A DNA stretch of 40,000 bases from Candidatus Uabimicrobium amorphum (GCF_009002475.1 NZ_AP019860.1:7769547-7809546); one strand, 5' to 3'; positions 1,797-36,595 are shown, numbered from the stretch's first letter. Numbers and translations: made by a program. Notes: generated by a model not told the origin, from the sequence alone.

Positions 1797-1832
1797 TTTG
1801 TATTCCTGAAAATTCTATCACTTGGTAGATGT

Positions 1833-3970: not shown

Positions 3971-3974
3971 GGAA

Positions 3975-5590: not shown

Positions 5591-5647
5591 TTTGGCCTCC
5601 TGATTGTGTTGCTAAAATGCTAGCGTATTAGAAAATACGCCAGGCCT

Positions 5648-14703: not shown

Positions 14704-14718
14704 TAATAGTCCTTCAAA

Positions 14719-17700
14719 TTAAAAATCCATGTGTGGGCGAATCCAAGGTTTTAGTAAAAATGTTGCATCCCATGATCGTCGAAAAACTCTCTCCCATCCA
14801 GCAGGAACGGAAGTAGGAATAATAACTAAGTGTTGGTTACCATTACAACTCATATCTGGCAAATCCAATTCGATTTGTGGAAAGTTTGGTAAGGTTTGTC
14901 CCATACAAGACGCAACAACTTGACCAAGATCTTCCCATAATATTGTATGAGCCATTTCTGTTCCTGGATAGCGTAGTCTAGTTTCAGGCTCTTCAGATGA
15001 GCAAATTAGGTAACGATATAGGGCATCAAGTACCAGTTTGTTTACAGTTTCCTGTGCGTTTAAACTACCATGGATGTTTTGTTCTGGCGATAAAATGCAT
15101 GAAATACAACCACTGATGCAAAACCCCATAGCTGATTCTAAAGACTGATAAACAGGATAGAACTCGCTCCCCACTAGTCTAGCATTTTGATAACATGAAT
15201 ATTCACTACTTACATAAGCAATAAACTCTGGACAGTACTGGAAAGGTAAAATATGATCAAAAGATTTCATACCAAATTCATTACGAAAAAATTCAAATAT
15301 TTTTCCTGCTATCTGTTTCTCTCCACGAACAGCGGTTTCCAAATCTTTAAACCAATCCTCTATACCTAAGTTATGAAAAGCTATATGTGTTGCGTGACTA
15401 CTTTCACATTCGTGTAAGGCTTCTTCAAAACAATGTGTGAAATCCATTGTTGGAAGTGGGTCTGGAGTGTTTTCTAGTGCACTAAGTTTTGATGTTAAAA
15501 CCCTTTCTATTGCTGTTATTAAAAAATGGTCACGAACAAGTTCAGAAGCACCGTTACCAAAAGCATCAGTATCAAAAAGATATATGTCTACTTTATCTTC
15601 TTCTAAAATACGATAAAAATAGCTTAACTCTTGGGCTTCTGCACCTGTTAAACGTAGAGCTGCAGAATGTATAGTCATTCCCAAAGAATTGATAAGAATA
15701 TCTAACGATTTTTCTTTGAAAAAATCGTTAGTAAGCAGGTTAATATTTGAACAAGCTTGTTCAAAATTACCATATGTGCTCATTAAAGAGTCACAGTGGG
15801 CTTGTACATTATTTGGTTCGTGTATTCTCGCGATTATATTGCAAATCTCTCGAAAAATTCTCCTGTCCAGAAAATTGGGATGTTCTTCAGTAAAACACCC
15901 AACCACTTCATCAAAAATTAGACTAAATGGTTCAGAAGCTTTCTTTTCCTCTGAATCAGAAGGATGCCACCTCACCATTAAGTGAAACAAAATTATAGTT
16001 CTCAAATTACGAACAGTAAACACCGACGGACGACTTTGATTTGCTAGCCATGGAGGTGCATCTGCAGCAGGAGGATCACAAGCATTTTCAGTTAAAAAAG
16101 CGTGTAAAACTTGAATAATGAGGGATTGGTAGACTACAGAGTTAGAATGTTGGTGTATTTCATTAATAAACATTCCAATTTTGGAATTTACTCCTGTATC
16201 TAACTGAAAAACTATGCCAGGTGCTTGATACTCGTGACCAATAGCTATTGGCGGATGACTTCCATCAGATTCTAATCCACGATAAACAAGGCGTGAAGCG
16301 TTAACTGTACGTGACATAAATTGGCGTTCTAATCCCCATGCAAATTCAGTAATTTTTAAATTTGGCTCGAAAGAAATATTATAAAATAATGATGTTGTTA
16401 GTGGTTGAGGAATACTAGGTAATTTTTTACTTGCGTATTTCTGAAAATAAGAAAAACGATCAGGAATAACTGAAGCTTTTTTTCCTTTGTTTATTCTATA
16501 CCATTTCAGTGGGTAACAACGTGGAGGAGTTGGTACGCTAATGATTCCATTATTATCTCCACTAACCCGGTCTCTACTATCCCCATCAGCCAACATGCCA
16601 TCCGAGATCTGTACAAGTGGCTCACTTGATGAAGTAATCACTCCAATTTGACGAGGAGTGTAAACTGTAATCTCGCCTGTACCAACAAAGCCAGGGGGAA
16701 GATCCTGTGGTAGTAAATTTGAACAAACCGTTGGCTCAAAATATTCTGCATTATCTACGCATAAATAAACTCCCTGAACTCTGGGAATAACCGCATTGGG
16801 AAAACCCTGAGCAGCTAATTGACTAACTGGTACCTTACGTGGAGAAGAGGAGTAACGATATGTAATTGTACCTGGAAGAAGTAGAGATATTGCTAATGAA
16901 ACGGTTTCATATCCTAACTCGCGCTGTTGCCCATTGACCATTTCAAACACTCGAACCGTTTCGTTTCCAGATGCTTCAAATAGATTTGGAGGCCATAAAT
17001 AGGGCTGATTGCTAGGAATATTTTTTTCTGGTACCCCTCTTCTAAATATCACTGATGAGAGTAAATTCCACAGATAACTTCGGTGAAGTGAAGCATTGGG
17101 TGTTTGACCCGGCGGAACTTTATCATATGTTTGTAAAAAACGTTCATGTCTACCTAAAGATCCTGGTAAATTACGAGTAGGTGGTTCATACTTAGAAGCG
17201 CAAATTTCAGCTAATGTAGGGTTTCCTTGAATTGGTAAAGGCGTTAGAAAAAAATTAGGTCCAAATTCGTGTTGGAAAACATCAATGACTCCCACTTTCC
17301 TTGCTAGAGGGGCATCGGCTGAAGTTAACTCGCTTACCTCTGTTGGATTAGATATCTCATGAGTTTTTGCACCTAGATCTGTTAAATAGATTTTTAAATT
17401 TTTCAGATTTTCTTCTTTACATGGATGATTTCCAAAAAGAAAATTATAAACGGCTTCCACTTTCTTATCCCACCGAGAAAAAGAACGATCATATTGATGA
17501 TCATTAATCAGGTTTATTCGGTGTCCATCATTTTGAATACGTGAATTGTTTGGCCCATCATTTTGCAAACATAAAAAATCAATAATTGCCATAAAAAAAT
17601 GATGGCATGCAATAATACGGTTATCTTCATGAAAAGGTATTGGTTGCAAATAGTCGGGGTCTAGGGCAATTTGAGGATTTCTAAAATAATACTGATCGCG

Positions 17701-20229: not shown

Positions 20230-20238
20230 TTTCGCCCC

Positions 20239-20937
20239 CTATTTTCTAGTGACCAAGTAAGCCTTTGCTCGCTCATCCTTTTGAAGCCAATTGATAATTT
20301 TTGGTTCATTAAGTACCTTGTGTAAGGAAATACCACCTTTACGAATACTTGTTATAAACTTTTGTACTTCTTCGTCTAACTTTTCCCATTTTTCGCAAAT
20401 GTCACTAAGTTCGTTTTTTACTTCTTGCAATGTATTTACATCTTCAATATCAGCAGGTAATTTGTTTACCTGTTCGAGTAAAGTATCATATAATTGCTTT
20501 ACTTTTGGCTGATTTTCTTCTGGATCTTCCAGGACTTCTTCCACTAAAGTTTTTATATTTTTTGGTAAATCTATGTATGAACGCCAATTTTTTTGTAACG
20601 TTGTTTCTATTTCTCCTAGAGTATTTTTGAATTCTTGAGAGTTAAAGCCCTTGTGCTCCAGGATAACACTGGAGATGTTAGCATTTTCTAAAATCTTGCT
20701 AATTTGCTTACGTCTTTGTTTTAGTTTGCGTTTATTGATGTCTAATTCACAATAACTAGATAGAATAGAATAGTGATGTACAAGTTTATGCGCTTGAAGG
20801 TTTATTGCATCTATCTCTTTAAAACGTTTTTTTAATTTTTCTATCTCTTCGCTAACTTCTCTATGATTTTGATACAATTTAACTTTATTTTTAAAATCTT
20901 TAGCAATATCTACTATGTTTGGCCTTGTATCTGACAT
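20239..20937 (-). CDS. dpdI: Coiled-coil hypothetical protein in the DpdI position
   Basis: 232 aa, K/E-rich heptad-like sequence, GGAGGA SD. The symbol comes from gene order only. Confidence 0.35.
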   Translation of the reverse strand: MSDTRPNIVDIAKDFKNKVKLYQNHREVSEEIEKLKKRFKEIDAINLQAHKLVHHYSILSSYCELDINKRKLKQRRKQISKILENANISSVILEHKGFNSQEFKNTLGEIETTLQKNWRSYIDLPKNIKTLVEEVLEDPEENQPKVKQLYDTLLEQVNKLPADIEDVNTLQEVKNELSDICEKWEKLDEEVQKFITSIRKGGISLHKVLNEPKIINWLQKDERAKAYLVTRK

Positions 20938-20940
20938 AAT

Positions 20941-23928
20941 CTATTCCTCCAATTTTTCAAGGTCTTCATCTAGTTCTTGGAGCTTTTGGCTTATCTTTTT
21001 TTTCCATACAATAGGGTCTTCAATTCCCTCATCATCTAAATTTTGTTGTAAGTTTTTTATACCATCCTTTAATATTTGCTCAGAACTATTTAAAATATCT
21101 AAACTTTCTTTCATAATTGTATAGTCTAATGAAACAATTGCTTGTATGCGCTGTATGAGGGAATTACCTCTAATAACTTTGCGAGCTAATTGAATTTGTT
21201 TATCAACTTGTTCCAAAATTTTTAAACGTTTTGATATTTCAATAACTTTTGGATTACTAAAAATATCAGCTTCAATGCCCAGATTTAGAGCTTCACTCAA
21301 CTCTTCGCTAATAGATTTTATAGAAAGTGTTCCAGTATATTCTAATGTTTGATCTAGCCATTTTTGACATCTTTCTACTTCTTCTTCTATAGCTTTATCA
21401 AAATATTTTTCAACTTGTTTAGCGAATGTTATCAAATTACCGTATGTCCTTTTGTACCAGTCTTTAGATTGTTCTGGTAATTTGTAAGGTTGTATTCTTT
21501 GTAATGAAGCATCTAACTCTTGTAGGATAGGAGAAACATCTATCATTTTTGTTTCTTTAGATTTACCTTTACGACAGGTTAAAACATCAAAAATACATTC
21601 CTCAATTATCTTTTCTCCATACTGCTCATATGCTTTAAGAAGACCTTTCCAAGAAGCAGAGCGCAGATCGTCGAATACTATACTTTCTTTAGGCGTTTTT
21701 GAAATGTTTAATAGTAAATCTTGGGAGACAGGTTCTGATGGCCATTTTTGACGAAGTAGGACTCCAAGAGATAGTAATCGGGTCGTTATTTCGAGAGGTT
21801 TGTGTTTTCCAGATGTTTTTGCTAATTTGCGTATTTTGTGATGTACTTCACTTGTACATCTATCCACGAAATCAAAAATAAAGACTAAATTTTTATGATC
21901 TTTTCCGAAACCATTAACCAATCCTCTAATAGCCAGAGCATTTTTTGGGGAAGCATCTATTTCTAGTCTTATATCACCTCCTTTAGTTTTGGTATGCTGT
22001 CCATCAAAGTGGATGTTTGAGCGTTGAAAGAATTGATAAAAAAACCAGCCATAAGTGTCTGAATCCCAATCATATGATGAACATATAGCCTCATATACTG
22101 CTTTTCGCCAAATGTTAATATCTTTATCTTCAACAGATTTTTTATTTACCCAATTATCAAAAATATCAACTGAGGTATTTATATTTATACCAACATTTTC
22201 AGTTATTTTTGGCGTAGTATGAACATCTGGAGTTATTTCAATTTTAGAGAGCTTTGGAAAATCAAAGGCTTGTATTATGCCTGAAGGTAAAGATGGTTTT
22301 GTTGGGTTTTTGGAGTATATTTCTAAAGCAGTTCTTATTTTGTCAGCTGTTTTTTCTCCATATTTTTCATAAAGTTCTTGTTGTATGTTAACCCCCACAG
22401 AACTTAGTTTAAACCACTCTAGCATCCTCGGACTAGGAAAATTTTTATATTCTAAGTTACTTTCGCCATCTTCTAATACTCTATTAATTATACGGCTAAT
22501 GAGTTTACGAGGATTAAACGCTTGAGGCTCATTAGAGGGACTTTTTGTATAGTCAATATATAAACGAACGATGGATTCAGGGGTAAACGGATATAAACCC
22601 CTACCATTTACTTCTCCAAAAGTCTTATGGCATAACGAGATATTAGGACATTTTACTTGATCGCAAAAACTGGGATAATCTCCATAACTTTTTGTTGTTA
22701 GAAAATTCTCCATTTCTTCAATACTGTATCTTGAAGCATTTAAGTAACGTGAAGCAAAATCAACTAATTCATCTTGACCAAAAGAGCCATTTTTGTTTTT
22801 TTCACCGATTGTCAAATCAAAATTTACAGTAATATCTATTCTTCCTTTGATGTTTTCGCGAAGTCTAGCAAAATCGTCATTGGTTAACCCAATTATACTT
22901 CGTAGAATACATAAATCAGCTCCAGCGTCTTCTGTTGAAATGAGTAACGACTCTATTAACTCAGCGTCTACTCCTTGAGTTATCGAAAGGTCCTCAAGGA
23001 AAAGAAGTAATTGTTTGTTTTCGTTTTTTAACGCCCTACGAATTTCAGATAATGCTCTTAGCAAATTACCATGTCTAAGACCTAACAAATTTGCTAATGC
23101 TTTTGATGTCGCTTGATTTAGAATTTGCGCTGACAAAGAAGATAAATCAGAATCTGTGAGCAGTGTGGCTGCAAGTTCTCCAGCTTTTTCCCCAGCTTTT
23201 TCTGCTGTAGATGCATCTACTATTACATCTTCAACTTTCCATTTTAATTCTTCTTCATCATCAGGACGTTTTTCACGTTCAGTTGCCGAAATATGACGTG
23301 CTAGTCGAACAACAATACCGTTATCTTTATCTTCCATTAATTTTTGGCGTATACTATCTGAGCGAAGAAAAGCAGGCATAGATTCTAAGATAATTTCATG
23401 CTCTTCATCGTTTGGAAAAGAGAGGTTAGATGTAGTTATATTTTCGGGTTCAAGTACAAACGCTAATTCATCAAGAATTTTTGTCATAGCACCTCTAATA
23501 CTAATATTATTAGTCCATTGAATTTCTTTTCGAATACGATCGATTTCTTCCCCTTCAAAGTCTCGTAAAATACAGTACAGAACATCTGCCAGATTAGCAC
23601 AATCGCGGGGGATTAGAACAGAGTGATATATTGCTTCTCGGGTGCTATTATACATCCAGCGAATCAAATGGGATTTTCCTGTTCCTGAGTCGCCGACTGC
23701 AGCACAAAATCTATGCTCACAACGTTGATCCAAGAAATCTTTCAGAAGTTGTTGTTCATCATAACGCATCGAGCTGTTTGTTTCGTAATTCAGTATCCTT
23801 ATTGGACTAGGAAAATGCGTAGCCTGAAAGACGGCTTTGTTAACACGTAATGCGACTGTATTCATCACTTTGGGACGATCGTTTGTATTCCAACAGATTA
23901 CATTAGGAAATTTAGGTGGCACTTTCAT
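20941..23928 (-). CDS. dpdH: Large P-loop NTPase in the DpdH position
   Basis: Walker A AVGDSGTGKSHLIRW (nt ~23681-23710). Candidate Walker B LLLFLEDLS. 995 aa. The symbol comes from gene order and size only. Confidence 0.4.
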   Translation of the reverse strand: MKVPPKFPNVICWNTNDRPKVMNTVALRVNKAVFQATHFPSPIRILNYETNSSMRYDEQQLLKDFLDQRCEHRFCAAVGDSGTGKSHLIRWMYNSTREAIYHSVLIPRDCANLADVLYCILRDFEGEEIDRIRKEIQWTNNISIRGAMTKILDELAFVLEPENITTSNLSFPNDEEHEIILESMPAFLRSDSIRQKLMEDKDNGIVVRLARHISATEREKRPDDEEELKWKVEDVIVDASTAEKAGEKAGELAATLLTDSDLSSLSAQILNQATSKALANLLGLRHGNLLRALSEIRRALKNENKQLLLFLEDLSITQGVDAELIESLLISTEDAGADLCILRSIIGLTNDDFARLRENIKGRIDITVNFDLTIGEKNKNGSFGQDELVDFASRYLNASRYSIEEMENFLTTKSYGDYPSFCDQVKCPNISLCHKTFGEVNGRGLYPFTPESIVRLYIDYTKSPSNEPQAFNPRKLISRIINRVLEDGESNLEYKNFPSPRMLEWFKLSSVGVNIQQELYEKYGEKTADKIRTALEIYSKNPTKPSLPSGIIQAFDFPKLSKIEITPDVHTTPKITENVGININTSVDIFDNWVNKKSVEDKDINIWRKAVYEAICSSYDWDSDTYGWFFYQFFQRSNIHFDGQHTKTKGGDIRLEIDASPKNALAIRGLVNGFGKDHKNLVFIFDFVDRCTSEVHHKIRKLAKTSGKHKPLEITTRLLSLGVLLRQKWPSEPVSQDLLLNISKTPKESIVFDDLRSASWKGLLKAYEQYGEKIIEECIFDVLTCRKGKSKETKMIDVSPILQELDASLQRIQPYKLPEQSKDWYKRTYGNLITFAKQVEKYFDKAIEEEVERCQKWLDQTLEYTGTLSIKSISEELSEALNLGIEADIFSNPKVIEISKRLKILEQVDKQIQLARKVIRGNSLIQRIQAIVSLDYTIMKESLDILNSSEQILKDGIKNLQQNLDDEGIEDPIVWKKKISQKLQELDEDLEKLEE

Positions 23929-23930
23929 AG

Positions 23931-24773
23931 TTAGACCTTTCCAAGTTTCACAAAAGCTATTTTTTCTCCAAAACTAGTTCGCAAAAATTTTCTTTGGTCA
24001 TCGGGACACCAATACTCTATTTTTTTCTGCAGTTTCAAACGTTCTAAACCAAAAGAAGTTGCTTCGCAAAGCTTGTCATCTGGCCACTCATTTTCCATAT
24101 TATTCAATACCGTTTTTCGAACTTCCCCACCATCAAGGACGGGACATAATTTTCCCAAGCGTTTACGAAATTTATGAGCGGTTACTTCTTCATCTCTATT
24201 TACTAGTTTATCTATGTGTCTTGTAAAAAAAAGAGTTGGGTCTAGAAATACACCTTTTATTCCCTCATCTTTTATCTTTTTTATAAGTCCAAGATATTTC
24301 ATCCAGTAAATGATCATATCCCATCGTTGATCGTTACGAAGACCAAAATCGGAGATATCAAAGCCTTGTTTATTAAAAGTGTTTTTAAATTCGTCATAAC
24401 TTTGTGGTAGTTCTAAAACAGGTTGTGCCAGTATCCACGCGCAAATTTGAGCAAACAAATTAGTTGTTCCTCCAACCTCTGGAGATAAAGCTCTGGAAGC
24501 CATTGTAATTGGAAATGTTTTGTCGATATTATCTGTATCCTGACACAATTCATCAGATAATTTATATAGAATTCCATCTTTTTCTACCAAGCCGCATTCC
24601 TCGCAAGCTGATAAAGTCCGAGTAACTTGTATAGGGGTTTTATCTTGGGTTTGAGCAGTGGGATAGAGCAGTGCCACTATTTCGTTTTTTGGCAGAGGAC
24701 TCGATATTTTTAATAGCTTTATCACCGCTAGCATACGGCTAGGAACAGGTTCCGGTTGTTTGTATATTTTCAT
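23931..24773 (-). CDS. dpdG: Winged-helix-containing hypothetical protein in the DpdG position
   Basis: ATGA start/stop overlap with the upstream helicase gene (24770-24773), so I start at Met16 of the track ORF (MKIYKQPEP). The N-terminal segment NEIVALL...VTRTLSACEECGLVEKDGILYKLSDEL looks like a wHTH. The symbol comes from order only. Confidence 0.4.
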   Translation of the reverse strand: MKIYKQPEPVPSRMLAVIKLLKISSPLPKNEIVALLYPTAQTQDKTPIQVTRTLSACEECGLVEKDGILYKLSDELCQDTDNIDKTFPITMASRALSPEVGGTTNLFAQICAWILAQPVLELPQSYDEFKNTFNKQGFDISDFGLRNDQRWDMIIYWMKYLGLIKKIKDEGIKGVFLDPTLFFTRHIDKLVNRDEEVTAHKFRKRLGKLCPVLDGGEVRKTVLNNMENEWPDDKLCEATSFGLERLKLQKKIEYWCPDDQRKFLRTSFGEKIAFVKLGKV

Positions 24774-27271
24774 TCTAGATACTCTTCCTCCCAAGATTGA
24801 AGTTGAATAGACGGGCATGGTAGTACATCGTAAACATATCGATTAGGATGATCTGGTGCTTGTGTGTTTATCGGAATAATTAAAATGGTTGTAGTTGGTA
24901 AAGAGTCCTGTATTATTTCCCATGTTTTTGGCCACCATGTTGTTGGTGATTGATCAAGAACAAAAACTGTTGGTTGATTTTTTGTAATATCACAAGGGAC
25001 ATCTTGGTGTAGAAAAAATAATCGAGAGCGGTCGTTATAAGGAGTTTTCCACAAACGTTTTTCTAAATTCTCAAACGATACTATATTTTTTACCCCTTGA
25101 TCAATTAACCACAACACTAAATCTTGTATTGCGTTTAGAAGTTTATCACCTTTGATGGTTGAAGGATAATACACACATCCAAGCTTGTCTGTTTTCAATA
25201 GTTTTTGTAAGTCTTTCCCTACTGTTTTTTGAGAAAATGTTATTTTTGGGGTACGACGAGGTAGTATTTTCCCACAAAAAGGCCGTTGGGATTTTTCTCT
25301 ACAGTGAAAACAGCCTCCACAGGCTCGTACAATGGGAATTTGATATCGATTACTTTTATAACATTCTTCAAAAAGACTCGAAATGCAACAAGACATATCG
25401 AAATTCAACATTTTTGCTAAAAGCTCTTTTTGTTTCGCATAGTGTTGATTTAGATCATTTCTAAAAGGAACAATTCTCTCGTCCCATAATTTGAGCTGAG
25501 TATGACCAAGTGTTGATAATCGAACATTCGCAAAATTTCTAGTGTTTTCTTTTGTTGGATGTTCAATGTTTATTATTTCTGCCCGGTCCATTAGAAGTAA
25601 GGTTCGCAAATTCCAAAGTCTATTTTGTTCGCTTTTCATATCTAGTTCTGGAGCAGAGTTTAAAGAGACGCAATAAATGGATTCTGCTTTATCAACTACT
25701 TTTTTGCTATTGAACATAGCATTCCATCTCTTTCTTCCCTTTTCTCCGCCAATAAACGTTGGTGCTGAGAGAGAATCAACAATTTCCCAATCGTCAAGTG
25801 TCCAAATAAGTAAAGACAAACATGGATTACCGTTTCGACCACCACGACCTACATCTTGATAAAAACGATCTAATGATTCTGGCAACTCAGCATGAATAAC
25901 AACCCTAACATCTGCTTTGTCAACCCCTAAGCCAAAAGCAGATGTAGCAATTATGATATCAACATCATTTTCTTTCCATCTTTGTAGCTGCTTCTGGTAT
26001 TCTCGCGGTGTTATATCACCATGTATCATTGAAACTCGCTGGAATCCGTTATTTATAATTATGTTGTTCCACTCAATACAAGAACTTTTTAAAGTGGTAT
26101 ATAAGATTAGAGGACGTGGTAAATGGTGAATAGCTTCTAATATCCAATCTATTCGTTGTTTTTTTGTTGGTGCTTGAGCCTGCCAGTATATTGGTTCTGG
26201 CCTTAATCGCGTCGCATGTACAATGGTTAGGTTTTCATTTTCTGAAAACATTTTTTCTAACGACTCTAAATGATACTGTGTTAAAGTCGCAGACATCAAA
26301 ACTGTAACAAAGGGGGTCTTTGTTTGACTTAGTAACTTTCGTCTAGCTGAAGACATTTGTTGAAAAGATGGACGAAATTCATCTCCCCAGTTTAAAATCA
26401 TATGAGCCTCATCAACTACAACATGACGAATATGACCATTTTTGGCACTTTTAAGTAAAGTAGAAAATAGAGAACCTACAAAAACTTCTGGAGAAACAAT
26501 TAAAGGACCCTGTGTACCGCTTTCACATCTCATTCGAATTCCTAAAGCATTCTCTCTTTCTTCTGGGCGATAAGCGACCCTATGACCAACAATATTCTCA
26601 ATCTTAGCTGCCAAATCCAAAGCAAGAGAAATTGTTGGTACAACAATAGGGGTGACACCCATTAACTCGGATTCTACAGACGGATATAGTATTGCCGGGA
26701 TAAATGCACATACGCTTTTTCCACTACCTGTTGGAAGAATTAATACGAGCGTTTGGCCAGGTGGTGCGCAAAGTACAGAGCGCACGGCTTCTCTTTGGGC
26801 ATTAGACCGATACCTTTGAAAATTTAAAAATTTTAAAAACGGATCCCCTGCACATTCAGTTTTTGAATGACAATTTTCATCTATAAATAATCTACTTTCT
26901 AATGATTCTTTGTTTGCATGTGGTAACCATTGAGGATACCATTCAAAAGATCTTATACAAGTATTTGCAGAAGAGGTTTGTCTAACATCTAAAGACGCCA
27001 ATTTATACTCTTCTTGCAAAATAGAAGTACAAAGATTTTTGGGGATTTTTAAACTTGCTAATTTTGAATTATTAATTTTTTCGTATTGGATAACAGAGCG
27101 AAACAAAACCATTAAGTCTTTTCCTCTGTAATTATTATCATTCAAGGCTTTTAATAAACGCCAATGAGGTGTGTTTTGCCAGTCAGAGGAGGTATTTGCC
27201 AAGCCTTTTATCGGACATGACCATGAATTTTGAAGTTCTTGTAAATAATTTATCACTATATTTTTTTCCAA
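24770..27271 (-). CDS. dpdF: RecQ-like DEAH helicase, DpdF-like
   Basis: LPTGSGKSVCAF, VVVDEAHMILNWGDEFRPSF, LMSATLT, ATSAFGLGVDKADVRVVIHAELPESLDRFYQDVGRGGRNG, later CGGCFHC. The track start is TTG (27269-27271). GTG at 27254-27256, overlapping the upstream TAG, is an alternative. Confidence 0.65.
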   Translation of the reverse strand: MEKNIVINYLQELQNSWSCPIKGLANTSSDWQNTPHWRLLKALNDNNYRGKDLMVLFRSVIQYEKINNSKLASLKIPKNLCTSILQEEYKLASLDVRQTSSANTCIRSFEWYPQWLPHANKESLESRLFIDENCHSKTECAGDPFLKFLNFQRYRSNAQREAVRSVLCAPPGQTLVLILPTGSGKSVCAFIPAILYPSVESELMGVTPIVVPTISLALDLAAKIENIVGHRVAYRPEERENALGIRMRCESGTQGPLIVSPEVFVGSLFSTLLKSAKNGHIRHVVVDEAHMILNWGDEFRPSFQQMSSARRKLLSQTKTPFVTVLMSATLTQYHLESLEKMFSENENLTIVHATRLRPEPIYWQAQAPTKKQRIDWILEAIHHLPRPLILYTTLKSSCIEWNNIIINNGFQRVSMIHGDITPREYQKQLQRWKENDVDIIIATSAFGLGVDKADVRVVIHAELPESLDRFYQDVGRGGRNGNPCLSLLIWTLDDWEIVDSLSAPTFIGGEKGRKRWNAMFNSKKVVDKAESIYCVSLNSAPELDMKSEQNRLWNLRTLLLMDRAEIINIEHPTKENTRNFANVRLSTLGHTQLKLWDERIVPFRNDLNQHYAKQKELLAKMLNFDMSCCISSLFEECYKSNRYQIPIVRACGGCFHCREKSQRPFCGKILPRRTPKITFSQKTVGKDLQKLLKTDKLGCVYYPSTIKGDKLLNAIQDLVLWLIDQGVKNIVSFENLEKRLWKTPYNDRSRLFFLHQDVPCDITKNQPTVFVLDQSPTTWWPKTWEIIQDSLPTTTILIIPINTQAPDHPNRYVYDVLPCPSIQLQSWEEEYLE

Positions 27272-30200
27272 AAAAACTTTTCAGATAAAACATATACCCC
27301 GATTGCATCAACTGATATATTTGGATTTTTTAATACTTGAGATACTAAACTATGCAATGAATAAAGTTTACATATATCAGAGTCGATGGCTAAATTACTA
27401 TCTATACCACTTTGAGATCGTGCAATTAGACGTGCCTTGTTGATGGTAAAGTATTCTTCGGCTGAAAGCAAAGCTTTGCTACTAGTTGTTTTTAATTTAT
27501 CACTAGTGGAAGTTTTTTTAAGAGCTTTTTCCGTAATTTCCTGGCATAATAACTTCCATCTTTCTTCCCCAAACCAGTTTTTAAGATATGTAGCTTTTTC
27601 TTTTCCCATGTTTATATCAGGGGGAGCTTTGTAAGGTTTTTTACAAATTTCGATTAAATCCAATTTCGCAATTTCTCCCTCTACGTCTAAGAATAATTCA
27701 TAAAGATATTCGTTAAACCACCCCTTTATCATTCGTAATAATCCGCCGCGAGCAATATCATCCCAATCATGTTCATTTAAAAATTTAATTATTGGATCTA
27801 AGTTTGGATATACATTAAGGATTATTCTGAAAATAATACAAGGATCTATTCTTCCATAACACTTGCGCCATAATACAAAGCAACGCCCTCGATCATCTTT
27901 CTTTAGAAGTTCATGACATATATCGAGACCTCTATGTCCAGGTCGAAAAAATTGAAGCCCTGAATTTCTTATAGTTGCAACATTTCGAATAGAGGTTCCT
28001 TCTTGAAACAAACTTTGCATTTCATCTAGATAATTGAATGGGATTAGAGGTTCTTTACGTTTAGGCAATGTAAACTTAAATGTGTCACGATTTACTTTAA
28101 TAGGCCGCAAACCAACATTATCTTTTAAGTAACTAATTAATGCTTTTGATAAAGTTTTGTTTTTAACCTCTTCGTTATCCCCCATGTCTAAGTTTTTAAA
28201 CATTTCGTTTACCTTGCGTAACGTATACATTCCATCAACAACATCTTGCTCTACTATTCGCAGTCGTTCTTCCTCGATTTTAGATTTAAGCTCACCTATT
28301 GCAGAGACTAATGCACTGGGACCACCTTCAAAAGTACGCTGTTTTAAATAGGGCATCTGTTCGTCTATTAAAAACTGTATATCAGAAACAGAGTCGTTAA
28401 AAATTCCGTACCCCTCAACTAGTAGTCTACGCCAAGCATCATCGACAGCAAGTTCTTCATTGTCTAGAGTAACAATAACTTTACACGGTATGTTTTCTGT
28501 ACGACTGATACGGTCTAAACGTCCTAAACGTTGCTCTATACGCATCGGTGACCAAGGGATATCAAATAGAATTATACCAGTAGCAAAATGTAAATTTACT
28601 CCCTCTTCTAATGAGGAATCTACAATCAGAAAGCTATTTCGGTTGCTCTTTTTAAAGCCTTGAATGATTTTTTGACTGTACTCCGCCGACATTTGTTCAT
28701 GGAGTACATACAAATGATTTTTGAAAGTTTTTTTCAAACGTTCCTCAATTTTATTGCACAATTCTACAGTCGAACAAAACACTACATATTTTTGTAAAGT
28801 TTTCTTAGAATTAAGTTGTTTGAGAATTTCTTGTATTAGAAAGATTCTATCTTCAGGCCATTTTTTTTCAACGGCATCACACATTTTTTGTAGAATATAT
28901 GCCCCTTCTTGCTTTGGATTATCGACTAATAGTTTCTTGATTTTTTTAGACAGTAACATTGTATCGCTAGCTATAATCTCTGAGATTTCAAAATAAAGAT
29001 CTATGTTTTTTTGTAAATCGATTTGTTGACTAATGTTACTTGCTACTTCTATACGCCAATTTTCAAGATTTTCCCAAAGAAATTCAAGAAGTTCATCGTT
29101 AAGTTCAAACTCATAACTTAATGCTACTTTACGCGAACATAAACCGTGATCTTCTGTCATCCATGCTCGACGTGTTCTTAACATCCGACGATGAATACGA
29201 TAAGTTTCGCTTATGTGGATTTGTAAAGATTTTACTACTTTTATGATGTCATCTTTTTTAGCTTCGTATACTTGATTTACTAAACTAGAAATGGTCTTAT
29301 CTCTTGGCAAAATCACAGACAACTTCTTCGCATGCCTTTTAAGTAAAAGAGGGTTTTTTGCTTTAGATAAAGCTAGAAGTACACGTCCTATTTCCTGTCG
29401 TTTTGCAAGGCGTTCTCTAAATACCTCAATGTGTTCCAATTGATATGTTTCTGGAGTGAGTAAATGAAGTAGAGCTAAAAGTTGCGATTCGCAGTGCAAA
29501 ACTGGAGTAGCAGAAAGTAATAAAATATGCCTTGTTTTCTTAGCTAGTTTACAAAATGCTTCATACAGAGGCGCTTTCTCCGAACTAGACTTTTTAGCGG
29601 TAACTATTCGGTGCGCTTCATCTACTACAACTAAATCTAACTGGCTGTTAGAGTTAGTTAATAAATCATTGTGTTCAACAACTGATATATTTGTAATAGA
29701 AAAACGTCTTTTTAATTCCTCTTTCCATTGCCAAACCAATGCTGTGGGAACATAAATCTTTATCATCGTTTGTGGAGAATCCAGAAGCACTTGTTTTAAA
29801 ATTATCCCTGTTTCGATTGTTTTTCCTAAACCGACTTCATCAGCAAGTAGATAGCGTATATTAGGATCTCGTAAGATACGAGATGCTATTTCTATCTGAT
29901 GAGAAAATAATTCCACTTTGCTGGATGTGAAGCTAGTAATTCCTTCACACAGTTGACGATGGTATATCAGTTGTTCTAAAAGTTTATATCTTTGATGGAA
30001 AAAAAAAGGTGTTCCTTGAACAAGTTCTTCTAACATTTTTTCTGGACTAGATGGCCAGCAAGATCGGACTTGAAAATCATCTTCGCGAAATTCGATTGGG
30101 GCTTTTTGATTATCAAATGTGATCTGGTAACTTCTAAAGTTTTTATCTTCATTACTACATAATAAAATGCGTCCGTATGACACATTTTCATTTGTTTGAA

Positions 30201-30405
30201 AGCAGCATGTTTGGCGGGGGATCATCTGGTAAATTAGCTGTGATTTGTGAATTTGTATAGATTCAAAATGAGTTGGACTAATAAAGAAATGTACCTCTAC
30301 TATTCCATCCACACCTGGGTAACAATAAATATTTCCAAAACCAAGTTTTTCTTGCCCTTTAATTAGAACTTTTTTTCCTGGGATGGGTTCCACACTAAAC
30401 TCCAA
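27256..30405 (-). CDS. dpdE: SNF2-family helicase/translocase, DpdE-like
   Basis: LLADEVGLGKTIETG, LVVVDEAHRI, LLLSATPV, EGVNLHFATGIILFDIPWSPMRIEQRLGRLDRI. The track start is TTG. GTG at 30391-30393, six nt after GGAG, is a plausible alternative start. Confidence 0.65.
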   Translation of the reverse strand: MEFSVEPIPGKKVLIKGQEKLGFGNIYCYPGVDGIVEVHFFISPTHFESIQIHKSQLIYQMIPRQTCCFQTNENVSYGRILLCSNEDKNFRSYQITFDNQKAPIEFREDDFQVRSCWPSSPEKMLEELVQGTPFFFHQRYKLLEQLIYHRQLCEGITSFTSSKVELFSHQIEIASRILRDPNIRYLLADEVGLGKTIETGIILKQVLLDSPQTMIKIYVPTALVWQWKEELKRRFSITNISVVEHNDLLTNSNSQLDLVVVDEAHRIVTAKKSSSEKAPLYEAFCKLAKKTRHILLLSATPVLHCESQLLALLHLLTPETYQLEHIEVFRERLAKRQEIGRVLLALSKAKNPLLLKRHAKKLSVILPRDKTISSLVNQVYEAKKDDIIKVVKSLQIHISETYRIHRRMLRTRRAWMTEDHGLCSRKVALSYEFELNDELLEFLWENLENWRIEVASNISQQIDLQKNIDLYFEISEIIASDTMLLSKKIKKLLVDNPKQEGAYILQKMCDAVEKKWPEDRIFLIQEILKQLNSKKTLQKYVVFCSTVELCNKIEERLKKTFKNHLYVLHEQMSAEYSQKIIQGFKKSNRNSFLIVDSSLEEGVNLHFATGIILFDIPWSPMRIEQRLGRLDRISRTENIPCKVIVTLDNEELAVDDAWRRLLVEGYGIFNDSVSDIQFLIDEQMPYLKQRTFEGGPSALVSAIGELKSKIEEERLRIVEQDVVDGMYTLRKVNEMFKNLDMGDNEEVKNKTLSKALISYLKDNVGLRPIKVNRDTFKFTLPKRKEPLIPFNYLDEMQSLFQEGTSIRNVATIRNSGLQFFRPGHRGLDICHELLKKDDRGRCFVLWRKCYGRIDPCIIFRIILNVYPNLDPIIKFLNEHDWDDIARGGLLRMIKGWFNEYLYELFLDVEGEIAKLDLIEICKKPYKAPPDINMGKEKATYLKNWFGEERWKLLCQEITEKALKKTSTSDKLKTTSSKALLSAEEYFTINKARLIARSQSGIDSNLAIDSDICKLYSLHSLVSQVLKNPNISVDAIGVYVLSEKFFWKKI

Positions 30406-30407
30406 TT

Positions 30408-32621
30408 TTATTGCGTTGCTTGCTTAAATTCCTGGAAAAATACATGGGTATTGTGGAATCCTCTACGACGGTTGCGGTTATTTCCACGGAAAATGGCAAC
30501 TTCTATACCATTTTTTTCGCATATCGAATTATTTGTCGTTTTCCATGGGCAGTCCCTTAATAGTTCCTCATATAAACGCTCGTGCTTTTCTCTGTTGTCT
30601 CCGACAAATTGATCATACTCCAGAACATACTTTAATGTCTCTTCGAGAGATAGTGATCCTTGGTCAAAATTCCTCAATGCTTTCAGTGCTGCTTTTTCTA
30701 ATTTAACAAATTCTTGTAAACACCCACGTTCTTGTTCTAACATCTTTTTTATTCTAGGATTACCGATCTTTGCTTGAGGTACTCTAATCGCACTATATCT
30801 TTTATCGTAAGTAGACCAAAAGTTGTCACGTGCACTTAACCAAGCGCGCCTTAACTGCGATGCGCTATCACAACTGTAAACTCCAAGGTTGATAAAATTT
30901 GAAATAGCGTCCAGGCGTCCTATCCCAAATAAATGTATTCGAGTTTCTGGCTTTCTTATTTTATCAATAGAGGTTAATATTTCAATAATTGTTTCTGTTT
31001 GACTACGGACTAAACTACCCAGAGCAATATAACTATAGCCTAGTTGTTGATATTCCTCGAACATCTTAGTGTAGGAATCAGCATCCCATCCTTGACAAGC
31101 AGCAATAGGTTTAAAGTTGTATTTTTTTTGTTTGTATAAATTTATAAACTCTTTGCCATGGTCAAGTGTAATTTGCCACCTTCTCTTTGCTTCTGAAAAA
31201 TCAAACTCTGTTTTTTGATAAGTACAAAGTCGATTATCGAACAAATCAGAAGATTTTGGAGGAGATTTTACTACACGATACTTTTTATCTTTTGAAATAG
31301 ATTCGAATTTATCTTTTGAGATAGGTTCATAATTACCATTTTTATTCTCAACCCAATATGTTTTTCTTTGGCATACGCTTGGAACAATCAAATGATCAAT
31401 GGTAACTCCATAATTAAAATCTAATCTTTCATAATAATCAATAATTTCCTCTGTTGTATAAGGTGGATTATACTCATTTAGGTAACCAAAAGCGCCACAA
31501 TCTCCCATCACTGGAACTTCTTTTGGACATCGAAGATATGCATGAATACCTAAAGATTCAACCAGTTGTTTCTTTTTTTTACTTTCTTCAATAGTCACTT
31601 TTGAAACTAATATGCCATCGTAATTGTATTGTTTCATCAATTCATGTGAATAATAGTCATCACGATAAGAATCATGTTGCAGGCCAAAAAGTTCTGAGTA
31701 GTGAAAATCATTAATGAAATCATAACGTGGATCTACACGATCATCCCATTCTGGTATAAAATAGAGCATTTTTGCGTCTTTTCTTGGAGTGTAAGCAATT
31801 TCTACTCGTTTTGGTGGTTTGTAATCCGTAGGTAACCCTAAACGTAACTCAAATGGGCATTTTTCAGACAATTTATATCCTTTTGGCAAGTTACCCAAGT
31901 CTTTATCCTTCTTATGTTGAGAATTGTTTGCTTTTCTCATCGTATTTAAAATAGTGACTATTTCTTTGGGTTGTTTTTTCAATGTATTTAAAATGTTTGT
32001 TTTTTGACATACATGCTGGGCAAATCTTTTAAAGATTTCTCCTTTTAAGCCAACCAAACCACAATGAAAATCTTTAGCCTCTTGAATACTTGTTGGATAA
32101 ATTGTTCCATTGGAGCCGTTAAGCTGTTTTTCTTGTGAACAGAAAAAAATTAATGGTATAGAAAACTGTTCATTTTTTTCAATTTGTAAAGACCTTAAAT
32201 ATTTTTTCCCCAGTAATACAATACCTAAATCGTATTTTCCTAACACAGAACGAAAATCTTTTGGTATTTTTAGTAATTTTGACCACTCATCAATTTCTTT
32301 GGCTTTCATAGTATCGAAAGTACATTCATAGGGTACAATTTCTTTATTACTTCCTATAAAACCATAGCCAGCTGAAACAATCCATAGATCTACATTAGCT
32401 TGTTTTTCCCTTAATTTTTTTATCCCCTTCATTAATCGTATGTGCTGCTCTCCTGTATACATATTCTCAGCAGTACATTTATAATTATCTAGCTTTTCAG
32501 TTTTTGATTTTAGCAGTTCTGGTTGTTTAAAATCTTCTTGCACGAGCTGGTTATCGGGTTTCGATGCTTTTTTTCCTGTGCACGAAGTAATCACTAGTAA
32601 TTTGGGTAAGTCTTTTTGCAT
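30408..32621 (-). CDS. Second DpdA-like transglycosylase paralogue with an N-terminal YaaA(DUF328)/DUF6884-like domain
   Basis: aa ~285-737 are collinear with the other DpdA: PVMGDCGAFGY, GVTIDH, IHLFGIG, SCDSAS, RYSAIRVPQ, GIEVAIFRGNNRNRRRGFHN. aa 1-250 carry LLVITSCTGKK and IVSAGYGFIGSNKEIVPYE. It sits directly upstream of dpdE. Confidence 0.7.
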   Translation of the reverse strand: MQKDLPKLLVITSCTGKKASKPDNQLVQEDFKQPELLKSKTEKLDNYKCTAENMYTGEQHIRLMKGIKKLREKQANVDLWIVSAGYGFIGSNKEIVPYECTFDTMKAKEIDEWSKLLKIPKDFRSVLGKYDLGIVLLGKKYLRSLQIEKNEQFSIPLIFFCSQEKQLNGSNGTIYPTSIQEAKDFHCGLVGLKGEIFKRFAQHVCQKTNILNTLKKQPKEIVTILNTMRKANNSQHKKDKDLGNLPKGYKLSEKCPFELRLGLPTDYKPPKRVEIAYTPRKDAKMLYFIPEWDDRVDPRYDFINDFHYSELFGLQHDSYRDDYYSHELMKQYNYDGILVSKVTIEESKKKKQLVESLGIHAYLRCPKEVPVMGDCGAFGYLNEYNPPYTTEEIIDYYERLDFNYGVTIDHLIVPSVCQRKTYWVENKNGNYEPISKDKFESISKDKKYRVVKSPPKSSDLFDNRLCTYQKTEFDFSEAKRRWQITLDHGKEFINLYKQKKYNFKPIAACQGWDADSYTKMFEEYQQLGYSYIALGSLVRSQTETIIEILTSIDKIRKPETRIHLFGIGRLDAISNFINLGVYSCDSASQLRRAWLSARDNFWSTYDKRYSAIRVPQAKIGNPRIKKMLEQERGCLQEFVKLEKAALKALRNFDQGSLSLEETLKYVLEYDQFVGDNREKHERLYEELLRDCPWKTTNNSICEKNGIEVAIFRGNNRNRRRGFHNTHVFFQEFKQATQ

Positions 32622-32643: not shown

Positions 32644-33351
32644 TTATTTTATCGATATCTTAAAAGGGTTATAGTTTACTTTAGAGTCGTATTGGTCAAC
32701 GCCTTCTTTTCTTTTTAGAAAGTTTACTGCCATGTATGTAAAAGGCGTTACGATAATTTCATATAAACACTTAAATATCCAGGCCGAAATCATAGCACTT
32801 ATTAAGATGTTTTTAGGCAGAATACCAATGTATGCAATGCTTATGAAACAGATTGTATCAACACCTTCTCCAAACAATGTCGAGATTACAGTTCTGAGCC
32901 ATAAGTGTCTACCATCACTCCATACTTTCATTTTTGACATAATAGTACTATTAACTATTTCTCCTAACCAATAACCAACCAAAGATCCAAGCACTATCCG
33001 AGGTATAAATCCATGGATTATGGCAAATTGATCTTGGTAAGACCAATTATGAGCTGGCGGTAAAATAACTGCTATAGTAAGAAATGAAACCATAAACACA
33101 TTAGACAGCAAACCTAACCAAATTAATCTTCTAGTTCGTTTATAACCATATACTTCAGTGAGTACATCTCCAATAACATAGGAGATCGGAAAAATTAAAA
33201 TGCCAGCGCTAAAAATAGCACTTCCAAGACTAAATAATTTTACAGCAGCAATATTTGAAACTAAGAGGGTAACTATAAAAGCTATACCAACTATGTCCAA
33301 ATGCTTTGGATGCCATTCGTCTTCGGAAGTTATTTTTTTTACCTCGTTCAT
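32644..33351 (-). CDS. yhhQ: YhhQ/DUF165 (VUT family) 7-deazaguanine (queuosine precursor) transporter
   Basis: Polytopic membrane protein with VSNIAAVKLF, IFPISYVIGDVLTEVYGYKRTRRLIWLG, RIVLGSLVGYWLGEIVNS, STLFGEGVDTICFISIAY. AGGAG SD. Confidence 0.85.
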   Translation of the reverse strand: MNEVKKITSEDEWHPKHLDIVGIAFIVTLLVSNIAAVKLFSLGSAIFSAGILIFPISYVIGDVLTEVYGYKRTRRLIWLGLLSNVFMVSFLTIAVILPPAHNWSYQDQFAIIHGFIPRIVLGSLVGYWLGEIVNSTIMSKMKVWSDGRHLWLRTVISTLFGEGVDTICFISIAYIGILPKNILISAMISAWIFKCLYEIIVTPFTYMAVNFLKRKEGVDQYDSKVNYNPFKISIK

Positions 33352-33360
33352 TGTTCTCCT

Positions 33361-34371
33361 TTAGTAGGCAGTCGTTGGGGTAATATGATGAGGAAAATCT
33401 ACACTTTGTGCTCCAAACCATTCATGAGCGTCAAGGTTGGCAATGCTCCAGTAGCGACTATCATCAGCCTTTAATCCGCTGTTTAGCTTTTCTAAAATTA
33501 AACTATTGGCAACTGTTGTTGCAGCTCTGATTTCTATTTCCATTTGTTGATGTGGAAGTATTATTTGTTGCTTTTCAATAATTTTTTTGAGGTCATCTTG
33601 ATAATTTAAAACACCTACACTATTGAGGTATTGTGGAACTCTATAGTCTTCTACAGCTATAATTTCATTAAAGTTTGATAGCGGCTTTAATTGACTATTA
33701 GTTTTAGATGACCGCCCTTGATATAGAAGAATTGCTAATTTTGCTTTCTTAAAAAATGGGAACTGTAAAGTTTTTTGTGTTGTATATATATGTGAAATAT
33801 CCTGAAAAGACATAGGGAAATATTGAATTAGCTTATCTAATAGTAACAGAGCATCCCAGTTAGAATCTTCATATAAGTTGATTGGGTCGCCATTAAATTT
33901 TTCATCTAAAACAGTTATTAACTCCTGGATTATCCAATGTCTATACTCTAGCATGGGAATCTGGACTACCCCCGTAAAGAATTCTTTAGTCGCATCTTGG
34001 CTACAAAATACTTTTTTTAAATTTTTGCTTGTGATATTTTTCTCACCAAATGTACGGAAAAAACAGCGAAACATGGCCATTGCACCTTTGTAGCTCGTTT
34101 CACTCTCTTTTATAGTAAAAGCTTGCTCTGGTTTTTGAAGATCCATATAACAAAAATTAATAGCTGATGTTATAATTGCAAATCTTGCAAATGCAAAATC
34201 ATCTTTAGGATGAATATTTTCAAAATCCCAATATACTTGTTTTTTGGGTAACGTTTTTAGTGTGTCAACATACTTATCAATACATGTTGGATTGACGTCT
34301 ACGAATTTTACAATTTCTTTTTTCTTCAACCATTTCCAGTTTTCGATAATTTTTTCAGCGTAAATTTCCAT
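33361..34371 (-). CDS. qng1: Queuosine salvage protein (DUF2419/Qng1 family, queuosine-5'-phosphate N-glycosylase)
   Basis: AINFCY, FPFFKKAKLAILLYQ, IIAVEDYRVPQYLNSVGVLNYQDDLKKII...MEIEIRAATTVANSLILEKL and C-terminal FPHHITPTTAY. These are collinear with human QNG1/C9orf64 as I recall it: [22 protein letters not shown]...EVEIRGCS...IPFHRIRCIYY. The track start is TTG at 34380. I prefer ATG at 34371. Confidence 0.8.
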   Translation of the reverse strand: MEIYAEKIIENWKWLKKKEIVKFVDVNPTCIDKYVDTLKTLPKKQVYWDFENIHPKDDFAFARFAIITSAINFCYMDLQKPEQAFTIKESETSYKGAMAMFRCFFRTFGEKNITSKNLKKVFCSQDATKEFFTGVVQIPMLEYRHWIIQELITVLDEKFNGDPINLYEDSNWDALLLLDKLIQYFPMSFQDISHIYTTQKTLQFPFFKKAKLAILLYQGRSSKTNSQLKPLSNFNEIIAVEDYRVPQYLNSVGVLNYQDDLKKIIEKQQIILPHQQMEIEIRAATTVANSLILEKLNSGLKADDSRYWSIANLDAHEWFGAQSVDFPHHITPTTAY

Positions 34372-34547
34372 TTTTACCAACCAGTTTTAAAATTAAAAAA
34401 TAAACATTCTATTCTATCCCGAATGTAACTAAAAAGCAAATTGCACTGTTAGTCAGTTTAAAATTTTCAACAGTAGTGGAACCAAATATAGCGTTTTGTC
34501 AAGACAAAGTAGTTGTTAATCTATAGCTTTTGTGCAACAGTAGTAAT

Positions 34548-36592: not shown

Positions 36593-36595
36593 AAT

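Follow-up and report, generated by a model that had tools for sequence, protein, structure and literature searches.

To our knowledge, no restriction-modification system described so far is more complex than Dpd, and the DpdA, DpdB and DpdC enzymes of Salmonella are the only ones to have been reconstituted. Here we compare with these enzymes a protein encoded in a 40,000-nucleotide stretch of the Candidatus Uabimicrobium amorphum genome (GCF_009002475.1, NZ_AP019860.1:7769547-7809546; this whole stretch is hereafter the window, and positions are counted from its first nucleotide), which, judged from its sequence, joins two known Dpd enzymes as a DpdC-like (DUF6884)::DpdA fusion. In the structural study of Salmonella Montevideo DpdA (PDB 7ui4), Asp95 was described as the general acid/base and Asp256 as the nucleophile, with Asp130, His181, Phe99 and Leu236 binding the base, and guanine exchange was lost in the D95A and Asp256 alanine mutants (PMC10164549). 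S. Montevideo DpdC converts dPreQ0-DNA to dADG-DNA, in which dADG is the deoxynucleoside of 7-amido-7-deazaguanine, and the same activity is putative for the N-terminal domain of the fusion. DpdC was named 'DUF328' in older papers, and the GATOR-GC preprint assigns Pfam DUF6884 to it; DUF6884 domains have a YaaA-related fold and are probably DNA-binding and base-flipping, with CxxxK and LSAxxG proposed as their active site (PMC11701544).

The fusion is encoded by a complete open reading frame (ORF) on the minus strand (30408..32621) that begins with ATG and specifies 737 aa. A 100% identical database protein is named 'tRNA-guanine transglycosylase DpdA' by NCBI and 'DUF6884 domain-containing protein' by UniRef. 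The features of the fusion are, from its N terminus:

31917..32621, minus strand: N-terminal DUF6884/DpdC-like domain, aa 1-235 (Pfam PF21818, PADLOC DpdC, hhalign, AlphaFold)
32568..32582, minus strand: CxxxK motif, Cys14...Lys18 ('SCTGKK'), putative DUF6884 active-site motif, near-invariant in the family
32361..32375, minus strand: SAGYG motif, aa 83-87 (LSAxxG signature of DUF6884), family-invariant
31770..31916, minus strand: linker, aa 236-284, with a predicted local distance difference test (pLDDT) of 56-79, variable in length and sequence across the family
30411..31769, minus strand: DpdA (DNA-guanine transglycosylase) domain, aa 285-737 (NCBIfam NF041059, PDB 7ui4 match, Foldseek)
31500..31502, minus strand: Asp374, equivalent to S. 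Montevideo DpdA Asp95 (general acid/base), in GDCGAF, invariant in alignments
31395..31397, minus strand: Asp409, equivalent to Asp130 (base recognition), in TIDH, invariant in alignments
31212..31382, minus strand: subfamily insertion of ~55 aa, aa ~414-470, a predicted beta-rich subdomain (alignment gap, family spacing, model)
30867..30869, minus strand: Asp585, equivalent to Asp256 (catalytic nucleophile), in SCDSAS, invariant in alignments
30519..30536, minus strand: degenerate structural zinc motif, aa 696-701 (T-N-N-S-I-C against C-x-C-x-x-C in the family; alignment)
30453..30455, minus strand: His723, equivalent to the fourth zinc ligand His395, kept and family-invariant

Over its full length, the DpdA domain (aa 285-737) aligned with aa 1-404 of the plus-strand product of 11817..14111 (BLASTP, 31% identity, E 7e-68), as had been claimed in a first-pass annotation of the window, and every motif pair quoted there was present in the alignment. 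The fusion scored 420.1 bits against the NCBIfam DpdA equivalog NF041059 (cut-off 200), in two stretches separated by the insertion, and matched the PADLOC DpdA model (E 3e-114) and the sequence of PDB 7ui4 (E 3e-73). The AlphaFold model of this domain, made with 54 sequences (pLDDT 95.2, predicted template modelling score 0.89), is a TIM barrel of the tRNA-guanine transglycosylase (TGT) type with DpdA-specific insertions, and it matched 7ui4 in Foldseek (E 2.8e-38, template modelling [TM] score 0.82/0.90), whereas tRNA TGTs reached a TM score of only ~0.43. The Pfam TGT family gave a partial match on aa 473-593 at 26.2 bits, below its gathering threshold of 26.3, and the kinship of the fusion to tRNA-guanine transglycosylases (PF01702) appears to be at superfamily level only. 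Asp374, Asp585, Asp409 and Phe378 align with Asp95, Asp256, Asp130 and Phe99 of the crystallised enzyme and are invariant across the fusion family, all three catalytic aspartates being retained. The position of His181 is occupied by Gln in every non-enterobacterial DpdA aligned, including both DpdA paralogues of the window, and the position aligned with Ala239 of Enterobacter cloacae DpdA is Gly568 in the window protein and in a metagenomic relative, P0002.

Against the rest of the family, six of the 89 positions of the DpdA domain that are at least 95% conserved deviate in the window protein (P332Y, S407T, G536S, Y601F, C696T and C698N), four of them, the non-Cys ones, conservatively. Because the changes are confined to these six positions and identity between the window protein and P0002 is ~74% across both domains, the DpdA domain appears somewhat derived rather than decaying. 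Compared with S. Montevideo DpdA, the C-terminal 453 aa of the fusion share the fold and the DpdA-specific architecture, with equivalents of Asp95, Phe99, Asp130, Asp256, Cys373 and His395, but identity is ~32-37%, an N-terminal DUF6884 domain and the ~55-aa insertion are added, Thr and Asn stand in place of Cys368 and Cys370 and Gln in place of His181, and the two proteins fall in separate clades. Given the two missing zinc ligands, we would class the window protein among DpdA homologues whose zinc site is atypical and keep it apart from canonical DpdA.

The identity of the N-terminal domain rests on several profile comparisons. Pfam DUF6884 (PF21818) matched aa 43-157 at 38.2 bits (curated cut-off 30), consistent with the DUF6884-type domain that the first-pass annotation had read from ITSCTGKK and VSAGYG...PYE, both of which are present. 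The PADLOC DpdC models matched aa 7-113 (E 7e-16), and a profile of the fusion family covering aa 7-206 aligned with residues 3-235 of the 318 of canonical E. cloacae DpdC (hhalign, 97.3%, E 1.7e-11, 195 columns), with SCTGKK/TCTNGK, YTGEQH/YKGGHW, SAGYG/SAGLG and PYECTF/PYKATF in register in fusion and canonical DpdC, respectively. Together with the assignment of DUF6884 to DpdC, these matches support the DpdC-like::DpdA fusion that had been listed as one of three readings. Its signature motifs, Cys14-Thr-Gly-Lys-Lys18 and Val82-Ser-Ala-Gly-Tyr-Gly87, are invariant or near-invariant in the family, none of its 34 positions with at least 95% conservation deviates in the window protein, and AlphaFold modelled it at a pLDDT of 90.2, folded over aa 1-235 and followed by a floppy linker.

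The canonical DpdC used here was recovered from E. cloacae plasmid pPOL9A (locus L087, 18962-19918, plus strand; PADLOC 470 bits). It shares with aa 7-206 of the fusion the TCTxGK, YxG, SAGxG and PYxxTF motifs and, in related islands, the same slot upstream of dpdB and dpdA; it differs in being a separate protein, the fusion domain being covalently joined to DpdA. On this plasmid dpdC is annotated as 'hypothetical protein' with a start ~35 codons late, and the longer frame restores TCTNGK and matches the full 319-position PADLOC profile. As for the proposed likeness to E. coli YaaA, the kinship of DUF6884 with YaaA is stated in the literature (PMC11701544), but our own fold match was weak (TM 0.40); the N-terminal domain found nothing significant among PDB sequences, YaaA included, and only a chance-level YaaA match in NCBIfam. 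The 'cantaloupe-fold' DUF6884/YaaA (DUF328) proteins, such as Bacillus subtilis YfjM and E. coli YaaA, resemble the fusion in Pfam DUF6884, CxxxK and LSAxxG, and differ in that neither YaaA nor YfjM has a known link to 7-deazaguanines. Stand-alone homologues of the N-terminal domain of ~230 aa were considered as split forms encoded beside dpdA, a view that found no support: the one in Richelia lies among transposases and resembles the remnant of a disrupted fusion, and the Pelobacter copy is outside a dpd context.

To place the fusion among its relatives, 965 proteins were recovered by protein search, of which the best 120 were nearly all full-length DUF6884+TGT proteins of 660-770 aa with 38-74% identity to the window protein. 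A genome scan with one genome per species found 390 relatives, and the 80 loci that were kept, again nearly all with full-length fusions, span Cyanobacteriota, Bacillota, Chloroflexota, Desulfobacterota, Bacteroidota, Planctomycetota, Pseudomonadota, Deinococcota and others. Thus, public genomes commonly hold this architecture, and many Dpd-like islands, spread broadly over the phyla and making up a large share of the total, use a fused DpdC-like::DpdA protein that databases label simply 'DpdA'. One such protein, WP_015211588 of Microcoleus (now Allocoleopsis) PCC 7113, is the accession cited as DpdA for a published dpd neighbourhood figure (PMC5699537); it is a 698-aa fusion and the sole DpdA on a complete 26-kb plasmid. 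WP_015211588 and other fusions of its type, named DpdA by NCBI's annotation pipeline PGAP, have the same two-domain architecture and DpdA clade as the window protein and ~37-45% identity to it, but they keep CxCxxC, lack the insertion and are the sole DpdA in the cyanobacterial plasmids checked, whereas the window protein coexists with a DpdA::DpdB. No description of the fusion as such was found in the accessible literature, which did not cover the two primary Dpd genetics papers (Thiaville 2016, Yuan 2018). A BREX-related TGT system (PMC12839542) is a different system.

In a neighbour-joining tree the fused DpdA domains formed one clade, in which the window protein stood beside P0002, P0003 and P0004, and the canonical DpdAs (E. 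cloacae, the plus-strand paralogue of the window, and that of the P0002 locus, L084) formed the sister clade. The two window paralogues, falling as they do in sister clades, are thus old lineages rather than recent duplicates, and the window protein is a derived member of a widespread, uncharacterised family built from two known Dpd enzymes. Two proteins of ~800 aa, in a Hodarchaeota and a Clostridiaceae metagenome-assembled genome (L064 1573-3966 and L073 2660-5068), combine a DpdA domain with a canonical-type DpdC N terminus (E 1e-15 to 1e-18 against E. cloacae DpdC), which suggests a second, possibly independent kind of DpdC::DpdA fusion. Full-length or near-full-length fusions with 32-39% identity were also found on three IMG/VR viral contigs (L092, L093 and L094), and the architecture thus occurs on predicted viral or prophage DNA as well.

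The zinc motif had been read as degenerate in this paralogue, and the degeneration was seen: WKNCTCPIC of the plus-strand paralogue reads WKTTNNSIC in the fusion (BLASTP alignment), with Thr and Asn at the family positions Cys696 and Cys698. In S. Montevideo DpdA the structural zinc site CxCx2Cx22H is formed by Cys368, Cys370, Cys373 and His395 (PMC10164549); the equivalents of the last two, Cys701 and His723, are kept in the fusion, and those of the first two are Thr696 and Asn698. As a mark of the paralogue, the degeneracy did not hold up: CxCxxC is kept in 180 of 185 non-redundant fusions, three others are truncated, and loss of the first two Cys is limited to the window protein, which reads TTNNSIC, and to P0002 (74% identical to it), which reads ESISPIC, whereas P0003, P0004 and P0005, with 54-57% identity to the window protein, retain the zinc cysteines. 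The loss of two ligands, which is all that is peculiar to the window lineage, is thus a recent change specific to the lineage of Uabimicrobium and P0002 and not a trait of the paralogue. Nor did it evidently follow the gain of a second DpdA, since P0004 and P0030, each sharing a contig with a DpdA::DpdB, keep CxCxxC. The new Cys pointed out in the first-pass annotation is indeed present (Cys691, ten residues upstream of Cys701) but is unconserved, and it is unlikely to be a compensating zinc ligand, P0002 having Lys at that position.

By analogy, the loss of two ligands has probably not abolished activity, because a DpdA-like protein of phage 9g lacks two of the four zinc ligands, keeps the catalytic residues, and belongs to a phage whose DNA carries 25% dG+ (PMC5699537). 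The likeness to phage 9g DpdA is drawn through that paper and not by direct comparison, and the phage enzyme differs in having a single domain, in its clade and in modification levels. The insertion of the window protein (given as ~60 aa in the first-pass annotation) is likewise real, at ~55 aa (aa ~414-470), and appeared as a gap of ~50 aa in the BLASTP alignment with the plus-strand paralogue, which lacks it; it is, however, a trait of a subfamily, the spacing at this point being bimodal across the fusion family with ~55 extra residues in 48 of 182 members. It follows the strand of the Asp130 equivalent, adjoining the active-site strand, and is modelled at high pLDDT as a small beta-rich subdomain of strands and one helix.

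The fusion lies in a Dpd island whose other components in the window are as follows:

33361..34380, minus strand: DUF2419/Qng1-type queuosine-salvage homologue, first gene of the operon (Pfam Q_salvage E 7.8e-33; PDB DUF2419 entries E ~8e-17)
32644..33351, minus strand: YhhQ-type queuosine-precursor transporter, 22 nt upstream of the fusion (Pfam Vut_1 E 2.4e-50; TIGR00697 113 bits)
27256..30405, minus strand: DpdE (SNF2 helicase), starting 2 nt past the fusion stop codon (NCBIfam DpdE 714.8 bits)
14134..27271, minus strand: DpdF, DpdG, DpdH, an ORF in the DpdI slot, a DpdJ-like helicase and DpdK (NCBIfam and PADLOC; DpdJ and DpdK below curated cut-offs)
10704..11816, plus strand: stand-alone DpdB (DGQHR/ParB-like ATPase; NCBIfam DpdB 430 bits; 82% identical to its L084 counterpart)
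11817..14111, plus strand: canonical-type DpdA::DpdB, 764 aa, zinc motif intact (NCBIfam DpdA 478 bits on aa 1-401, DpdB 400 bits on aa 411-756)
9705..10478, minus strand: FolE2 (GTP cyclohydrolase IB), first step of preQ0 synthesis (NCBIfam NF010200 300 bits)

The minus-strand genes are tightly spaced in the order DUF2419, yhhQ, fusion, dpdE, dpdF, dpdG, dpdH, DpdI-slot ORF, DpdJ-like helicase and dpdK, with gaps of 9 nt between DUF2419 and yhhQ, 22 nt between yhhQ and the fusion, and 2 nt between the fusion and dpdE. Promoter-like sites were at background level, no terminator-like site was seen between 30000 and 35200, and Rfam showed no riboswitch or other RNA. The DpdB and DpdA::DpdB genes, with FolE2 beside them, converge on this block from the plus strand; what the first-pass annotation had called the plus-strand DpdA is the DpdA::DpdB fusion, preceded by a separate DpdB, and it grouped with E. 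cloacae DpdA in the neighbour-joining tree. The window has no stand-alone DpdC and no DpdD, the latter giving no match anywhere in it with the NCBIfam and PADLOC models or with phmmer. The restriction block (14134-24818, minus strand) is a divergent Dpd variant: the DpdI-slot ORF (20239-20937, minus strand, 232 aa) matched no model, the 1836-aa DpdJ-like helicase reached 92 bits against an NCBIfam cut-off of 800, and DpdK was also below its cut-off.

The fusion is the first dpd gene of this block, as had been noted, but it is preceded on the same strand by DUF2419 and yhhQ. Elsewhere, a fusion stands within ~2 kb upstream of dpdE-F-G-H at 11 of the 80 loci and also at L082, and the order in Leptolyngbya is queD-queE-queC, fusion, dpdE-F-G-H; the position ahead of dpdE is therefore a recurrent arrangement. 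It is not an obligatory one: at L084, the locus of P0002 as closest relative, the fusion is accompanied by DUF2419, by DpdB with DpdA::DpdB and by FolE2-QueC-QueE, and no dpdE-K were seen in the 22 kb read. Genes for queD-queE-queC, FolE2 or YhhQ lie directly upstream of fusions, with FolE2 beside the fusion in several loci, and a fusion is the sole DpdA on complete Allocoleopsis and Scytonema plasmids; in compact cyanobacterial islands the fusion, again the only DpdA, is accompanied by a DndB-like protein, a DpdJ-like helicase and a phospholipase D-type (PLD) nuclease. Since precursor genes lie upstream, the 22 kb of L084 show no dpdE-K and the fusion can be the sole DpdA of a plasmid, gene context argues for a role in modification over one in restriction, and first position in the block is, in view of L084 and the Allocoleopsis plasmid, no sign of a role in restriction. 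Zinc loss, insertion and operon position, all of which the first-pass annotation had stressed, are thus lineage-level, subfamily-level and non-diagnostic, respectively.

In other settings the fusion accompanies HerA and UvrD, or a short TGT between two DEAD helicases. The short TGT-like proteins (~315 aa) lie between two DEAD/DEAH helicases near the fusion in Paenibacillus (L081 16994-17950) and on a Nostoc plasmid (L089 15167-16114), and the ~20 short TGTs found near fusions belong neither to the clade of the fusions nor to that of canonical DpdA. In a complete chromosome from a metagenome assembly (OW818681.1; L099 4337-21082), QueF-QueC-QueE-QueD-FolE2 and three small ORFs precede the fusion, which is followed by HerA-like, UvrD-like and PD-(D/E)xK proteins, and QueF in this setting is a hint that preQ1, in place of preQ0, may be what some fusions handle.

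Fusions are also associated with DpdB genes. The window island holds two DpdB units, and a DndB/DpdB gene adjoins the fusion in L088, L090 and L097; within 10 kb, the distance to which contexts were read, such a gene was detected at 14 of the 80 loci, by phmmer with the window DpdB, which missed divergent DndB-type proteins, and a small hidden Markov model, which recovered some of them. DpdA::DpdB fusions recur as well (~60 full-length cluster representatives, mainly of the Planctomycetes/Verrucomicrobia group), and a free DndB/DpdB gene stood directly upstream of DpdA::DpdB in every context read (L084, L096, L097 and L098). Both fusion types occur together on four contigs, namely the window, L084, a JGI contig with P0004 and P0232, and L097, where DpdC-like::DpdA, DndB and DpdA::DpdB are contiguous on one strand. 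In L098, a related Planctomycetes island, the slot that the fusion fills in L097 holds a stand-alone DpdC of canonical type (333 aa, 28% identity to E. cloacae DpdC over 322 aa), and, among the evidence from gene context, this shared slot speaks most strongly for the fusion as the source of DpdC function in its island. A pairing of a particular DpdB with the fusion was sought and abandoned, the pairwise identities being non-discriminating. Only in the window and L084 does DUF2419 stand immediately upstream of the fusion, and it was not detected at the 80 other fusion loci; with salvage genes in the Dpd island of a prey-engulfing planctomycete, the base may be scavenged.

We favour, with moderate confidence, the reading that the fusion is a bifunctional modification enzyme that would insert preQ0 and then convert it to ADG, its steps being modelled on the Salmonella reconstitution (PMC10164549). 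The DpdA domain would swap a target guanine in DNA for preQ0, with Asp585 as nucleophile and Asp374 as general acid/base by homology and with the DpdB ATPase probably assisting the exchange; the N-terminal domain, as the island's DpdC equivalent, would most likely hydrate the dPreQ0 nitrile to the amide dADG, and the fusion would couple insertion and maturation on one polypeptide. It would act in a modification module with the free DpdB and DpdA::DpdB, for which FolE2, YhhQ and DUF2419 would supply or recycle the base, and would be co-transcribed with dpdE-K, whose products would restrict unmarked DNA. The two catalytic activities, like the substrate and the way in which work is shared with the second DpdA, are what we infer from these comparisons. 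Several observations weigh against this reading. The zinc site is reported to be family-conserved and to pin insertion Ins8 to the barrel (PMC10164549), the loss of two of its ligands could destabilise the DpdA domain, and the window protein, with six deviations at invariant positions against a family median of one, is among the more deviant members. On the N-terminal side, pairwise identity to canonical DpdC is ~30% over ~100 aa (~31% for the pPOL9A protein), nothing in the fusion corresponds to the C-terminal ~80 residues of canonical DpdC, and the best meaningful fold match in the PDB was E. coli YaaA (5caj), with a probability of 0.99 but weak (TM 0.40, E 7e-3). In addition, because one fusion island carries QueF, a nitrile need not be the substrate of the DUF6884 domain in all systems, and insertion by the fused domain is possibly redundant in an island that already has a complete canonical DpdA::DpdB and DpdB.

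This redundancy, the loss of zinc ligands only in the window lineage, and the concentration of all six deviations in the DpdA domain with none in the N-terminal domain would fit a fusion that no longer exchanges bases in this lineage. The DpdA domain would then be a sequence-specific DNA-binding, base-flipping scaffold that brings the DpdC-like domain to sites premodified by DpdA::DpdB and DpdB, could stand in for the missing C-terminal ~80 aa of DpdC as the DNA-binding part, and would make the fusion functionally the DpdC of the island, in keeping with the slot of canonical DpdC in L098. We regard this as unlikely, because the three catalytic Asp remain intact, as do Phe378 and the residues of the pocket, the deviations other than those of Cys are conservative, and the DpdA domain is as conserved as the N-terminal domain between the window protein and P0002; moreover, the dual-DpdA relatives P0004 and P0030 keep both zinc motif and catalytic residues, which speaks against a general relaxation of selection by a second DpdA. 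The retention of both DpdA types with intact catalytic residues in four independent islands argues instead for non-redundancy, and the two DpdA domains are 31% identical and lie in different clades. It is conceivable, if quite improbable, that the fusion is a second base-exchange enzyme whose specificity differs from that of DpdA::DpdB, for another DNA motif or another, possibly salvaged, 7-deazaguanine, so that the island writes two marks. That only the two zinc-less members have DUF2419 immediately upstream of the fusion, and that the same two proteins have Gly568 at the E. cloacae Ala239 position, would agree with this, and the ~55-aa insertion by the active-site strand could alter DNA recognition; yet the fused DpdC-like domain suggests a nitrile (preQ0) substrate, the pocket residues are the same as in sole-DpdA fusions beside preQ0 synthesis genes, the DUF2419 link comes from two genomes only, and nothing in the analysis discriminates between bases. 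More speculative still is the proposal of a two-writer Dpd system made up of the recurring trio DpdC-like::DpdA, DpdB and DpdA::DpdB, whose two catalytically intact DpdA paralogues would write marks at different motifs or of different chemistry, and in which the zinc-less fusion of the Uabimicrobium lineage, linked to DUF2419 and YhhQ, may use 7-deazaguanine salvaged from engulfed prey.

That the fusion might read modified DNA and license or restrain DpdE-K, in place of the missing DpdD, was suggested by its location 2 nt upstream of dpdE, by the recurrence of this arrangement (11 of 80 loci and L082) and by the lack of a detected DpdD in the window. The fusion nevertheless matched E. cloacae DpdD at nothing better than E 6.7 (BLASTP), the P0004 island holds DpdD and a fusion side by side in its gene set, and dpdD is transcribed last in the canonical cluster (E to K, then D) and not first, on which grounds replacement of DpdD was rejected. 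Fusions also occur as sole DpdA in compact islands and without dpdE-K in the 22 kb around the closest relative, and full conservation of catalytic residues, unexpected in a pure reader, makes this role unlikely; taken together, we consider it very improbable. A subset of islands keeps two catalytically intact DpdA types, and the questions raised are why both are kept, whether fusion couples insertion with maturation and whether a conserved structural zinc site is dispensable; the two-DpdA module and its natural zinc-less variant are parts worth experiment.

Two further gene groups flank the island. Beside FolE2, an odd cluster on the minus strand (756-8446) encodes a glycosyltransferase-2::GTP cyclohydrolase II fusion (932 aa), a UDP-glucose-dehydrogenase-like::NADAR protein, a DUF4145 protein, an AsnB-type glutamine amidotransferase, an arylamine-N-acetyltransferase-like protein and a DUF4915-like protein; its product might be a nucleotide-derived compound, and no link to Dpd was established. 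On the other side (35015-39049, minus strand), the genes encode a Replic_Relax/MarR-like protein and one of 817 aa whose matches are weak and HerA/TraD-like, which suggests a mobile element that either borders the Dpd island or includes it.

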